This document shows positions 5,576-7,847 of a stretch of 64,000 bases of DNA, piece by piece. This stretch comes from a virus: the IMG/VR virus record IMGVR_UViG_3300027659_000031, positions 3,085 to 67,084 of that record, one strand, 5' to 3'. The translations under genes were made by a program, and so were the position numbers. The notes under the pieces are model-generated. The model was not told the DNA's origin. It ran no database searches and was given only the letters and a program-made list of their open reading frames with translations. Position 1 is the first letter of the stretch; each line of letters starts with the position of its first letter.

Positions 5576-6175
5576 ATGGACATTAGCAAACTTAAAGGTC
5601 ACATTCCTGAAGCTGTACTAGCACAGATCCCTGATACTGCTGCTAAATTTGAAATTAACACGCCACTTCGTTTAGCTCACTTTTTGGCTCAATGTGGCCA
5701 TGAATCTGGCGGGTTTAAACTTGTTCAAGAGAATTTAAACTACGGAGCAAAAGGCCTTTTAGGTATATTCAAGAAGTATTTTCCAACCGAAGAAAAAGCT
5801 AAGTTGTATGAAAGAAAACCTGAGAAGATTGCAAACCTCGTTTATGGATCAAGGATGGGGAACGGACCTGAACCTTCAGGAGATGGTTATAAATTTCGTG
5901 GCCGTGGTTATATTCAATTAACCGGTAAAGACAACTATACTGCATTTGGCAAAGCTATCAATGAAGATATTGCCACCAATCCAGATAAAGTAGCTACTAA
6001 CTATGCTTTATTATCTGCGGCATGGTTTTTCCATAAGAATGGCTTACATAAAATAGCTGATGGAGGTGCAACTGACGCAGTAGTAACTTCTGTAACTAAG
6101 CGTGTTAACGGAGGAACTATTGGCCTTTCTGATCGTATCAAACACTTTAAAGAGTATTACGATTTATTAAAGTAA
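5576..6175 (+). CDS. GH19 chitinase-like endolysin
   Basis: AHFLAQCGHESG, FRGRGYIQLTG, SAAWFF, TKRVNGG. Confidence 0.9.
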   Translation: MDISKLKGHIPEAVLAQIPDTAAKFEINTPLRLAHFLAQCGHESGGFKLVQENLNYGAKGLLGIFKKYFPTEEKAKLYERKPEKIANLVYGSRMGNGPEPSGDGYKFRGRGYIQLTGKDNYTAFGKAINEDIATNPDKVATNYALLSAAWFFHKNGLHKIADGGATDAVVTSVTKRVNGGTIGLSDRIKHFKEYYDLLK

Positions 6176-6212
6176 TAGGTTTCATAAAGGTTATACATTT
6201 ATAACAATAAAA

Positions 6213-6476
6213 ATGTACCTTATGAAAAATTTTTTTAAAGCATTATTCAACGACAACAACACTATTAACGAAAAAAGTTTTATTGGGTTTTGTGCCTTCT
6301 TAATGATGGTAGGCTTTGCAGTAGCAGATATTATTACTGGGAGTCTTGGTAAGGAACTCGTTGTTCAAGAGTTTATCTTTAATGCGTTTATGGTATTGAC
6401 TTTAGGATCTTTTGGTATTGCTTCCGTAGATAAGTGGATCAATAAAAGCAAAGGAGAATCTAATGGAGAACTCTAA
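6213..6476 (+). CDS. holin-like membrane protein (2 TM)
   Basis: Two hydrophobic helices and charged C-tail, immediately after endolysin. Confidence 0.55.
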   Translation: MYLMKNFFKALFNDNNTINEKSFIGFCAFLMMVGFAVADIITGSLGKELVVQEFIFNAFMVLTLGSFGIASVDKWINKSKGESNGEL

Positions 6477-6732
6477 AACTACTATGTTTATATCCAATAA
6501 TTGGAGTATCATAGTAGGAATTCTTACAGTGGCGTTTGCGGCCGGTGGAATCTTTAGTGAGTTCAGACTAATGCACAAAGAAATAGAAGAACTCAAACGA
6601 GACACTGATAGCAAAATTAATCAGATCATAGACGAACGTCAACGTAAGAGCGATTGGTTAGAGGAACAAGAACAACGAATTGATGATTTAGAAGAGTGGA
6701 AAGCATACGAAGACGGAAGACAGTCTAAATAA
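6463..6732 (+). CDS. single-TM coiled-coil protein (lysis-associated?)
   Basis: N-terminal TM then heptad-rich charged tail. Confidence 0.55.
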   Translation: MENSKTTMFISNNWSIIVGILTVAFAAGGIFSEFRLMHKEIEELKRDTDSKINQIIDERQRKSDWLEEQEQRIDDLEEWKAYEDGRQSK

Positions 6733-6737
6733 AAAAA

Positions 6738-7847
6738 ATGAAAAACCTATCCAAAGAAGAATTATTAAGTAGACTTGAGGCAATTAACAGAAGCAATGCA
6801 ATTATATATTTTGACCTAAAAGGAAATATTTTAGGTGTTAATGTTGTTTTTCTAAAAGCACTGGGATATGGTGAGAAGGATCATGAAGAAATCATCGGTA
6901 AACACCATAGTATTTTTGTATGTGAAGATTATGCAAGATCATTGGAGTATGAAAAGTTTTGGGATATATTAAGGAGTGGTAAATTCTATCAAGGAGAATT
7001 TGAGAGAAGGAAAAAAGATGGTAGTCTTATCAACTTACAAGCTACCTATAATCCTATCTATGATGAGAGCGGCACGATTACTAAAGTAATGAAAGTTGCT
7101 ACTGACATTACTGAGATTGTTAATAGTAAAAAACAAATAGATGCGATTAACAAAAGTACTGCAACTATTAGTTTTGATATTAATGGTTTTATTTTAGACG
7201 CTAATTCTATATTCTTAGAAACTATGGGGTATAAGGCTAACGAAAAAAGCCAAGTAATAGGAAAGCATCATAGTATTTTTGTAACGTATGAGTATTCAAA
7301 ATCAGATGAGTATAGTAAGTTTTGGAAATCTTTAAAAAGCGGTAAGTTTTTTGACGGGATATTTGAAAGAAAAAAAGTGGATGGTTCTATTATTTATTTA
7401 CAAGCCACCTACAATCCTGTCTTTGATAGTAAAGGAAACGTCACAAATGTAATCAAAATTGCAACTGACGTTACTGAAGCCGTTATTAGCAAAAATAAGA
7501 TAGATGCTCTTTCTAAAGATCTACAGATTGAGTTAGATAAATCACAGCAATTAAAAAACTCAATTGAAATAGAGAAGAACGCTGCATTAAATGATTTAGA
7601 TGTGTTGATGAAGAAAAGTCAATCTGAATTAATCAAGACAATCGTATTAGTTGCTTTAGCAGTAATTATAGGTGTGGGTCTTGTAACAACTATGCTATAT
7701 TGGATGGCTATGGTAACTGGTAAAGACACACAGATTATCGGCTCAACTTGGTCAAATATGTTTAGCGTATTGCTTACAAATGCATTTTCAATAGTAGGTA
7801 CAATTATGGGTATTAAATACGCTACACAAGATGGTAGTAAAAAATAA
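6738..7847 (+). CDS. tandem PAS/PAC domain protein with C-terminal transmembrane helices
   Basis: Two near-duplicate PAS-PAC repeats (IGKHHSIFV..EY.KFW..L.SGKF..G.FER.K.DGS.I.LQATYNP..D..G....V.K.ATD.TE), coiled coil, two TM helices; no MCP, HK or GGDEF output. Confidence 0.85.
   Translation: MKNLSKEELLSRLEAINRSNAIIYFDLKGNILGVNVVFLKALGYGEKDHEEIIGKHHSIFVCEDYARSLEYEKFWDILRSGKFYQGEFERRKKDGSLINLQATYNPIYDESGTITKVMKVATDITEIVNSKKQIDAINKSTATISFDINGFILDANSIFLETMGYKANEKSQVIGKHHSIFVTYEYSKSDEYSKFWKSLKSGKFFDGIFERKKVDGSIIYLQATYNPVFDSKGNVTNVIKIATDVTEAVISKNKIDALSKDLQIELDKSQQLKNSIEIEKNAALNDLDVLMKKSQSELIKTIVLVALAVIIGVGLVTTMLYWMAMVTGKDTQIIGSTWSNMFSVLLTNAFSIVGTIMGIKYATQDGSKK

Follow-up and report, generated by a model that had tools for sequence, protein, structure and literature searches.

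Gene content of the lysis cassette

The window analysed here, a stretch of 64,000 nucleotides, comes from an uncultured freshwater phage (IMG/VR record IMGVR_UViG_3300027659_000031), whose 67-kb record is about 35% complete. In the region of interest, positions 5576-7847 of the window, four genes were found on the + strand in the order GH19-TM87-TM89-PASTM, with gaps of 37, -14 and 5 nt (TM87 and TM89 overlap by 14 nt), at the positions given in the original prediction and tightly packed. This tight spacing was counted as an operon layout.

The first gene (5576..6175, +) encodes a GH19 endolysin of 199 aa, which matched Pfam PF00182 Glyco_hydro_19 (E 7.5e-9) and phrog_181 'endolysin' (2.6e-71). 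Its translation contained neither a signal nor a SAR sequence. An endolysin without an export signal needs a holin, and the cassette already supplies one, which judging by protein layout is likely TM87 (6213..6476, +), an 87-aa protein with two transmembrane (TM) segments and a charged C-terminal tail. TM87 had no holin match in Pfam, PHROG or NCBIfam, and its resemblance to class II holins is one of topology only. A homologue, 42% identical, was found in the cultured Flavobacterium phage vB_FspM_immuto, directly upstream of an annotated endolysin and holin; that phage has no hairpin gene. The third gene, TM89 (6463..6732, +), encodes 89 aa with one N-terminal TM segment and a coiled coil, an i-spanin-like layout, and its sole match was a weak one to the Rz-like spanin phrog_739 (E 0.004). 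The cassette had been described as holding two holin-like genes; this suits TM87 with its two TM segments, on topology, and does not suit TM89.

Scanning of positions 5200-8200 showed no terminator-like site, and promoter-like sites in the same interval numbered 6 against a shuffle mean of 13.7, a scan that is uninformative for a Bacteroidota-type host. In lake metatranscriptome X19, a short contig corresponding to 6634-6784 with 0 differences spanned the TM89-PASTM junction, and further identical or nearly identical contigs lay at 7230-7417 (X19) and at 7073-7260 (library X20, 0 differences); such contigs show neither strand nor level and may stem from DNA carry-over, so that they are not proof of transcription, and the uncovered parts are uninformative. 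The stretch was also recovered in freshwater metagenomes from 13 studies.

PASTM carries two PAS domains and a conserved membrane hairpin

PASTM (6738..7847, +) encodes 369 aa arranged as PAS-PAS, a long helix and a two-TM hairpin. It belongs to the PAS domain superfamily, with PAS_3 matching two stretches (E 2e-26, 92.5 bits vs a cut-off of 25.6) and TIGR00229 reaching 1.3e-31 (109.4 vs 22.9). PAS domain 1 (residues 20-124; 6795..7109, +) was recognised by Pfam PAS_3/PAS_9/PAS and modelled with a pLDDT of ~90, and 51 of its 105 columns were invariant in 50 distinct homologues. PAS domain 2 (residues 141-245; 7158..7472, +), seen both in profile matches and in the model, is 55% identical to PAS domain 1. 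A cytoplasmic coiled coil or signalling helix follows (residues 246-300; 7473..7637, +) and runs unbroken into TM helix 1 (residues 301-327; 7638..7718, +), a hydrophobic stretch that is helical in the model. After a predicted short periplasmic loop with a conserved STWSN motif (residues 328-341; 7719..7760, +), the polar-rich TM helix 2 with a GxxxG motif (residues 342-360; 7761..7817, +) completes the hairpin. The AlphaFold2 model (mean pLDDT 85.4) contained two PAS folds, a helix at 246-327, a 4-residue turn and a helix at 332-368.

Profiles at E<=0.01 detected no MCPsignal, HATPase_c or further output domain in PASTM, and it also has no phospho-acceptor His domain of the kind found in sensor histidine kinases. 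The predicted architecture, with two PAS domains, a coiled coil, two C-terminal TM helices and no MCP or kinase output, was borne out.

Conservation was distributed unevenly along the protein. TM2 was the most conserved segment, with 19/19 columns invariant in the 50 distinct homologues, followed by the loop (11/14) and TM1 (12/27), and the coiled coil varied most (13/51 columns over residues 246-296) if the short C-terminal tail is set aside. Since TM2 and the loop are conserved and the coiled coil is variable, the hairpin appears to be more than an anchor. At least 120 full-length PASTM homologues at 82-92% identity were collected, and a PASTM relative was encoded in 172 of the 180 candidate stretches in IMG/VR; on this comparative evidence, the PASTM gene is real and under selection. 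A lambda-like dual start, using an internal Met before TM1, was considered and rejected, as relatives have Leu at that site.

The hairpin is a separate, almost purely viral family

A phmmer search with the last 125 aa returned 99 representatives, of which 70 reached E<=1e-10. Among these 99, the hairpin sits C-terminal to PAS-PAS, to one PAS domain, to a GAF domain or to a domain of ~45 aa, the last form being the commonest. The W, S and N of the loop, the LLTN..FSI.GTIMG stretch and a K were invariant or nearly so, the short form included, and the short form comprised 4155 clusters at 90% identity. A word-limited search for longer hairpin fusions (>350 aa) gave PAS-PAS forms only, in 5/97 candidates. 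The suggestion that the C-terminal ~80 aa might have stand-alone homologues was thus confirmed by a separate hairpin family that occurs without PAS-PAS, mostly beside endolysins or holins.

Database comparisons placed the hairpin in no named family. Pfam, PHROGs and NCBIfam held nothing beyond weak matches (PASTM at E 0.0033, P0124 at 3e-5) to phrog_1544, a family with no assigned function. Profile search of the PDB brought up nothing but a chance coiled-coil match (E 0.024), the BFVD fold search one uncharacterised relative from an uncultured phage, and the ESM Atlas only unnamed viral clusters, all with scores <0.9. As for cultured phages, the short form had no tblastn match in 50,697 GenBank phage records, tblastn of full-length PASTM against GenBank phages gave PAS matches only (3 records), and a DNA search with positions 5500-8000 against the same phages gave endolysin-level matches only. 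In a cellular collection of 185,579 species, the hairpin occurred in just 8 loci, all on MAG contigs and from different phyla, which we read as binned phage DNA and not as a cellular family. A limited literature search gave no description of a hairpin or PASTM family. The hairpin thus appears to form a family that is new to the literature and viral almost throughout, and it lacks a name, a Pfam model and a structure.

Homology of the hairpin to the neighbouring holin-type families was rejected, as in hhalign the TM87 family reached a probability of 2.3% and Phage_holin_4_1 one of 0.3%. PASTM accordingly belongs to none of the known holin families compared (Pfam/PHROG, Phage_holin_4_1, TM87), and the 'holin-like module' seen in its C-terminus comes down to a likeness of topology.

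A short form of the hairpin accompanies a phage kinase and receiver

Of 80 viral short-form loci, 75 encode a receiver-only protein (adjoining in 52) and 71 a TM-PAS-HATPase_c kinase. The receiver has 145-148 aa and no output domain. Its DD pair, phospho-acceptor Asp, Ser/Thr and Lys were invariant in 49 sequences, and its Pfam score was 30.0 bits against a cut-off of 30.2. Complex prediction for the receiver with residues 1-90 of the short form gave 'weak support' at a score of 0.48, compared with 0.25 for the best control; this mark was reached by 58/80 solved complexes and 2/110 mismatched pairs, and among the scores <=0.60 were just 7 of the 80 solved complexes that passed, along with both passing mismatches. 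The runs agreed in >=96% of contacts, with partner pLDDT >=85. The receiver presumably acts by binding the hairpin protein, a reading to which this prediction lends weak support. A rhodopsin-like gene was observed inside the kinase-receiver-hairpin operon at three loci.

No such triad was found for PASTM itself: the 67-kb record, which is ~35% complete, showed neither HATPase_c nor Response_reg. Phage_holin_4_1 was not found in it either. We read PASTM as a fused alternative to the triad. Taken together, the swapped input domains and the kinase-receiver triad make the hairpin look like a signal-driven output, with PASTM as its one-component form.

Such an arrangement recalls LytSR/LytST, the two-component control of the holin-like proteins CidA/LrgA in Gram-positive bacteria (PMC3507848). 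Both couple a two-component system to holin/antiholin-like membrane proteins; LytSR/LytST is cellular and transcriptional, working through a DNA-binding regulator, whereas the phage receiver has no output domain.

The PAS pair resembles redox and oxygen sensors

The closest solved relatives by sequence were MmoS (3ewk, 9.4e-9), NifL (2gj3 and 9qq6, 4.8e-8) and Aer (8dik, 1.1e-5). By fold, Foldseek placed MmoS (4.2e-16), DosP (9cdr, 8.9e-16) and NifL (1.7e-14) closest, the top matches being tandem PAS sensors. In MmoS, NifL, Aer, DosP and FixL (8js5), as in PASTM, a signalling helix comes after the tandem PAS pair. PASTM ends in a membrane hairpin as its output, whereas these proteins act through kinases, an anti-activator, MCP domains or phosphodiesterases; they bind flavin or haem, and the resemblance of PASTM to them is one of sequence and fold only. 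The PAS domains of PASTM were also 39-50% identical to those of the phage kinases that accompany the short form.

A chemoreceptor type of tandem PAS had been predicted, and the comparison upheld it: PAS-PAS chemoreceptors have a tandem PAS_3 pair of the same type, and the nearest non-hairpin relative among GenBank phages was a PAS-PAS-MCPsignal protein, 43.8% identical over both PAS domains. The MCPsignal domain of chemoreceptors is absent from PASTM. PF00015 did not match it at E<=0.01, and the model is sensitive enough, since the PAS-PAS relative L251 scored 1.1e-49. The JGI annotation of many PASTM homologues as 'methyl-accepting chemotaxis protein' is therefore an artefact of the PAS pair and wrong for PASTM.

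That label and the nearest relative of the PAS pair are what could be cited for PASTM acting as a dominant-negative decoy, either of host chemoreceptors, as the original prediction had suggested, or of PAS signalling proteins in the host. Without an MCP signalling domain PASTM has no means of joining receptor arrays, its conservation lies in the hairpin and not in the PAS pair alone, and other phages drive this hairpin through a GAF domain or a kinase-receiver pair, for which a chemoreceptor decoy offers no explanation. In addition, among cultured phages a TM87 homologue was seen only in one that infects Flavobacterium, a group not known to have flagellar chemotaxis. The analysis thus yielded nothing in favour of a decoy, which we regard as highly improbable.

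PASTM is linked to lysis genes across related phages

The surroundings of 80 PASTM loci were examined over flanks of ±5-6 kb. A lysis gene lay <=3 kb from PASTM in 75 of these loci, which were chosen by likeness to PASTM and are mutually related, with 70 distinct architectures, so that the counts are not independent events. An endolysin was present within three genes in 66/80 (adjoining in 38), a TM87-family gene in 52/80 (adjoining in 44), and Phage_holin_4_1 at <=3 kb in 31/80. Four unrelated families are represented among the linked endolysins (GH19, GH24, M15 and PG_binding_1+phrog_3000), the gene order is shuffled, and PASTM often lies between a holin-like gene and the endolysin. A link to lysis genes in related phages, which the original prediction had proposed to look for, therefore holds. 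Lysis genes at <=3 kb were also present in 61 of the 80 short-form loci.

PASTM is an optional part of the cassette

The 95-99% identical relative L171 (92.7-98.9% nucleotide identity in the flanks) keeps GH19-TM87-TM89 and has no PASTM. It differs by a swappable accessory block (6738..11380, +) composed of PASTM, a TonB-dependent-receptor-like gene (7926-10178) and a lipoprotein gene (10175-11377), in place of which L171 carries a GT2 glycosyltransferase and a metallophosphoesterase. Because L171 keeps the endolysin, TM87 and TM89 without PASTM, PASTM is accessory and not a holin needed by the cassette. The rarity of the hairpin at TM87-family loci (7/80) fits an accessory role as well.

This result bears on whether PASTM could itself be a holin or pinholin, whose hairpin would oligomerise into holes, with the PAS domains keeping it shut pending a change of signal. 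Two TM helices with both termini inside are typical of class II holins and pinholins of the S21 type. PASTM is like them in its hairpin topology (N-in/C-in), its small-xxx-small motifs (GVG in TM1, GTIMG in TM2), its short charged tail and its cassette position, and TM2 contains polar residues. It is unlike them in its 369 aa with a 300-aa cytoplasmic sensor, in being optional, and in being far more conserved than usual holins; no holin near this size and build is known to have been described. Moreover, L171 has the same signal-less endolysin, so another protein must be its holin, most PASTM loci contain another candidate (TM87 family or Phage_holin_4_1), and no homology to holin families was found. 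We consider it improbable that PASTM is the holin.

A moron-type sensor as an alternative

Part of the evidence points away from lysis altogether. PASTM lies at the cassette edge and is exchanged in a moron-like way together with the TonB-dependent-receptor-like and lipoprotein genes, a nuclease just upstream is likewise an indel, and the hairpin is present in only 7/80 TM87-family loci. PASTM could then be a moron-type membrane sensor outside lysis, the hairpin acting on a conserved host inner-membrane component, e.g. a respiratory, proton-motive or transport complex, or in superinfection exclusion, and the lysis-gene region would be a hot spot for accessory and membrane genes. Loci in other modules fit this explanation: PASTM lies in the replication module beside a 5'-3' exonuclease in L060 and L069 and also away from lysis genes in L012 and L076, and 19/80 short-form loci have no lysis gene at <=3 kb. 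Homologues away from lysis genes had been named beforehand as a finding that would count against a role in lysis; they do exist, at 4-5 of 80 PASTM loci and these 19 short-form loci, although most homologues are near lysis genes. TM2 is invariant, whereas among relatives TM87 is 41-88% and GH19 47-85% identical; such extreme invariance is unlike that of fast-evolving holin partners and could indicate a host target, as expected if the hairpin met a conserved partner. The rhodopsin-like gene in the kinase-receiver-hairpin operon at three loci can be counted on the same side.

However, a hot spot alone leaves the frequent placement of PASTM between a holin-like gene and an endolysin unexplained, and PASTM stays adjacent even where one of three other families takes the endolysin's place. 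In L002, the closest relative (96% identical), TM87 and PASTM remain paired although the endolysin lies elsewhere. We rate a moron-type role outside lysis as rather unlikely, second to a role in lysis timing.

A proposed model of sensor-coupled lysis timing

The reading that we favour, tentatively and at slightly less than an even chance, is that PASTM serves as an accessory regulator which couples the timing of lysis to a sensor. The PAS domains, both cytoplasmic, would read a signal inside the infected cell, and the rigid helix would relay the change to the C-terminal N-in/C-in membrane hairpin. The hairpin would act in the inner membrane on the holin (TM87 and/or a Phage_holin_4_1 protein), and may delay or trigger hole formation and hence the release of the cytoplasmic GH19 endolysin. 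A wider pathway, confined to phages, would have PASTM as its one-component form; in its other form a phage PAS-histidine kinase and a receiver-only protein would stand upstream of the hairpin, which there has a small N-terminal docking domain. We infer the holin as target of the hairpin, and likewise what kind of signal is read and whether lysis is delayed or hastened.

Compared with the antiholin class, PASTM is dispensable and has a cassette position in 75/80 loci, and its binding to a holin and effect on timing are putative. Comparison with PHROGs linked it to none of the named antiholins, RI and RIII included.

The nearest functional parallels are lysis inhibition in T4, where holin T works with the antiholins RI (periplasmic) and RIII (cytoplasmic), and in Vibrio phage ICP1 (PMC11413866, PMC8385771 and PMC7182436). 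Lysis inhibition is like the role proposed for PASTM in that a dispensable accessory protein encoded near the lysis genes makes holin triggering depend on conditions. In T4, RI detects superinfection on the periplasmic side, where it binds a domain of the holin, whereas PASTM combines cytoplasmic PAS domains with a membrane hairpin. PASTM has no sequence or profile likeness to the T4 antiholins, and its proposed signal is intracellular.

Burst size and phage fitness both depend on when lysis occurs. To our knowledge, the only well-studied sensory control of lysis is the lysis inhibition of T-even phages and ICP1, in which superinfection is sensed from outside the cell. If the favoured reading is true, a cytoplasmic PAS protein or a phage two-component system would give viruses a second means, quite unlike the first, of gauging the physiology of the host ahead of lysis. 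The broader proposal, which we hold with more doubt than confidence, is that many uncultured aquatic phages carry their own signal pathway driving one invariant hairpin that gates the holin. The input would be either a one-component PAS-PAS or GAF sensor or a phage kinase and receiver, in a few phages with a rhodopsin-like gene in the operon, and the redox, energy or light state of the infected cell would set lysis time in place of a fixed holin clock. Given the size of the family (4155 short-form clusters and 172 viral PAS-PAS loci) and the recovery of this stretch in freshwater metagenomes from 13 studies, the effect could matter for the viral turnover of lake bacteria.

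The lysis region of the window and the architecture of PASTM

The window covers 64 kb of an IMG/VR virus record that is 67 kb long and about 35% complete (CheckV). The G+C content of the window is about 32%, and almost every long ORF is on the plus strand. ARAGORN located a phage tmRNA, whose tag has 23 residues, together with genes for four tRNAs (Ile, Leu, Met, Leu), the sites being 12095-12480, 14166-14461 and 55572-55665.

Four tightly packed genes run head to tail at 5576-7847. The first encodes a GH19 endolysin (5576-6175; Pfam 7.5e-9; PHROG 181 'endolysin' 2.6e-71) with neither a signal nor a SAR sequence. 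It is followed by the small membrane proteins TM87 (6213-6476), whose two TM helices are followed by a charged tail, and TM89 (6463-6732), with one TM helix and a coiled coil, whose sole match was a weak one to an Rz-like spanin (E 0.004). PASTM, the PAS-PAS-hairpin protein, comes last (6738-7847). The spacing between successive genes is 37, -14 and 5 nt, and a scan of 5200-8200 found no terminator-like site. The GH19 start is preceded at 23 nt by TATATTTG (5546-5553), a match to TAnnTTTG, the Bacteroidota -7 promoter consensus; no motif of this type was found directly before PASTM, consistent with co-transcription from the endolysin promoter. Two lake RNA libraries contained short identical contigs overlapping PASTM and the TM89-PASTM junction, which is at most a hint of transcription.

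Domain profile searches showed two PAS domains in PASTM (PAS_3 2e-26; sensory box 1.3e-31), which share 55% identity, and found neither a kinase or MCP domain nor any other type of output domain. In the AlphaFold2 model (pLDDT 85.4), two PAS folds were accompanied by a single unbroken helix (residues 246-327) that leads out of the cytoplasm and across TM1; a turn of four residues connects it to another helix (332-368). An N-in/C-in hairpin is consistent with the lysines that precede TM1 and follow TM2. The original prediction of a PAS-PAS-TM protein in a lysis cassette was borne out.

The closest solved relatives of the PAS pair by sequence were the flavin sensors MmoS (9.4e-9), NifL (4.8e-8) and Aer (1.1e-5), and by fold the tandem PAS sensors MmoS, DosP, NifL, LOV-HK and FixL. 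In the GenBank phage collection, the nearest relative without the hairpin, 43.8% identical over both PAS domains, was a PAS-PAS-MCPsignal protein, so the earlier description of the pair as chemoreceptor-type was fair. For the same reason, the label 'methyl-accepting chemotaxis protein' that JGI gives to many PASTM homologues is an artefact of the PAS pair. That PASTM is a chemoreceptor decoy, as also proposed, seems hardly credible to us.

The hairpin belongs to a viral family with varied input domains

The last 125 residues of PASTM were searched with phmmer against 1.84 billion representatives, giving 99 matches, 70 of them at E<=1e-10. The hairpin module (coiled coil, TM1, loop and TM2) was C-terminal in every case, and the N-termini varied: PAS-PAS, one PAS (P0131, P0123), a GAF domain (P0128) or, most commonly, a domain of about 45 aa joined to a basic stretch and to a coiled coil whose length varies (the short form). 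Natural input-domain variants include P0128 (360 aa), a GAF-hairpin fusion, and P0131 (227 aa), with an unrelated single PAS. The single PAS of P0123 (251 aa) reads as the front of PAS 1 fused to the back of PAS 2, which suggests a recombinational deletion.

The short form alone comprises 4155 clusters at 90% identity, none bearing a Pfam domain or functional name, and no relatives were found in Pfam, NCBIfam or PDB. IMG/VR holds at least 453 hairpin loci. Among 185,579 prokaryote species (one genome each) there were only 8, all on MAG contigs (L162-L169) from eight different groups: Bdellovibrionota, Verrucomicrobia, Gemmatimonadota, Saprospira, Saccharibacteria, Flavobacteriales, Ignavibacteria and Alphaproteobacteria. 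The simplest explanation for these is that phage DNA was wrongly binned into MAGs. ESM Atlas neighbours were 100% viral, and GenBank phage records gave no match. The hairpin family is therefore viral. The stretch of DNA studied here was found in freshwater metagenomes of 13 studies.

Across 50 distinct PASTM homologues, TM2 was invariant in 19/19 columns and the loop in 11/14, while the coiled coil was variable, a pattern that a mere membrane anchor would not show.

Most PASTM homologues lie near diverse lysis genes

Neighbours within 3 kb were counted in 80 loci chosen by likeness to PASTM (78-96% identity; 70 distinct neighbour architectures). A recognised endolysin lay within three genes of PASTM in 66 loci (adjoining in 38), a TM87-family gene was nearby in 52 (adjoining in 44), Phage_holin_4_1 in 31, and at least one of the three in 75, counts that overstate independence since the loci are mutually related and were picked via PASTM. 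Four unrelated endolysin families are represented (GH19, GH24 Phage_lysozyme, Peptidase_M15_3 and PG_binding_1+phrog_3000), and gene order is shuffled, PASTM often lying between a holin-like gene and the endolysin. At L077:5703-7359, paralogous TM87-family genes flank PASTM on both sides. Fourteen loci lacked a recognised endolysin, and several of these stop at a contig edge. Some results speak against a link with lysis. No lysis gene was seen within 3 kb at five loci: the L057 locus is truncated within a partial GH19, in L060 and L069 PASTM neighbours a 5'-3' exonuclease as well as replication genes, and in L012 and L076 it lies elsewhere.

Of 80 short-form loci, 61 had a lysis gene (Amidase_2 or M15 endolysin, Phage_holin_4_1 or TM87 family) no more than 3 kb away; 19 had none in that range, further exceptions to the link. 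The sole cultured phage with a TM87 homologue (42% identity), Flavobacterium phage vB_FspM_immuto, carries it directly upstream of an annotated endolysin and holin. By profile comparison the hairpin is homologous neither to the TM87 family (2.3%) nor to Phage_holin_4_1 (0.3%), which likewise counts against a lysis role.

The closest known systems, lysis inhibition in T4 and ICP1 and LytSR control of Cid/Lrg, both differ from PASTM in sensor, location and family. A literature search found no published description of a PAS-bearing antiholin, and none of the phrases searched for histidine kinases, two-component systems or response regulators encoded by phages occurred in any paper.

PASTM is optional and exchangeable

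Among 80 TM87-family loci, 57 had an endolysin and only seven a hairpin (four PAS-PAS forms, three with a receiver). L171, a near-identical relative without PASTM, matches the window in five blocks at 92.7-98.9% nucleotide identity. The match ends two bases upstream of PASTM, at 6736, and restarts at 11381; window 6738-11380 (PASTM, a TonB-dependent-receptor-like gene and a lipoprotein gene) is replaced in L171 by a GT2 glycosyltransferase and a metallophosphoesterase. L171 also lacks the secreted-nuclease gene (window 4644-5185). The region right after the lysis genes is a hot spot of accessory-gene exchange.

L171 retains TM87, TM89 and the GH19 endolysin, again with no export signal, so PASTM cannot be the holin that the cassette needs. 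A sensor-gated holin is accordingly improbable, and the optionality of PASTM favours a regulator instead. The same swap keeps alive a further reading, in which PASTM is a moron in an accessory island acting on a non-lysis membrane target; we consider this unlikely, though clearly less so than a holin. A small remainder of the probability, beyond these readings and the one preferred below, is reserved for others that we have not conceived.

The short form usually accompanies a phage kinase and receiver

Two-component genes were counted at 80 viral short-form loci. A receiver-only protein of 145-148 aa was present in 75 (adjoining the hairpin gene in 52, within two genes in 72), and a TM-PAS-HATPase_c kinase of 300-430 aa in 71. 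The receiver scored 30.0 bits against Pfam, just below the 30.2 cut-off (E 6.2e-7), and its match to a solved response regulator was weak (3ilh, 1e-4); in 49 sequences the acidic pair, phospho-acceptor Asp, Ser/Thr run and Lys were all invariant. The kinase PAS domains are 39-50% identical to those of PASTM. No kinase or receiver gene was found in the 67-kb record, which is about 35% complete.

Complex prediction of the receiver with short-form residues 1-90 scored 0.48, against 0.25 for the best control. The mark applied was reached by 58/80 solved complexes and 2/110 mismatched pairs, and with a score of 0.60 or less by only 7/80 solved complexes plus both passing mismatches. The runs shared at least 96% of contacts, with partner pLDDT of at least 85, and the model gives weak support to docking of the receiver on these residues.

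Two further proteins were observed at short-form loci. A bacteriorhodopsin-like ORF of 192-193 aa (Pfam Bac_rhodopsin 3.8e-12; L140:4415-4993, L141:4415-4993, L121:4423-5004) lies within the kinase-receiver-hairpin operon, flanked by the receiver/165-aa membrane protein on one side and by the hairpin gene on the other; its RY.DW..T.P motif is helix-C-like, and a D...K close to the C-terminus falls at the expected position of the retinal lysine. The second protein, 325-430 aa long, combines roughly four TM helices with a long coiled coil and has 30 members in 88 loci (L083:5650-6690 and 29 other short-form loci). It gave no Pfam match, recurs directly after the hairpin gene or after Phage_holin_4_1, and is possibly an additional part of the lysis cassette.

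Most simply, the hairpin protein can be read as an output driven by a signal. Its input would come from a phage kinase and receiver or else, in the window's lineage, from directly fused PAS domains. PASTM would then be an accessory sensor-coupled regulator of lysis timing, the one-component counterpart of a kinase-receiver-hairpin pathway confined to phages, an interpretation that we tentatively prefer while giving it slightly less than an even chance.
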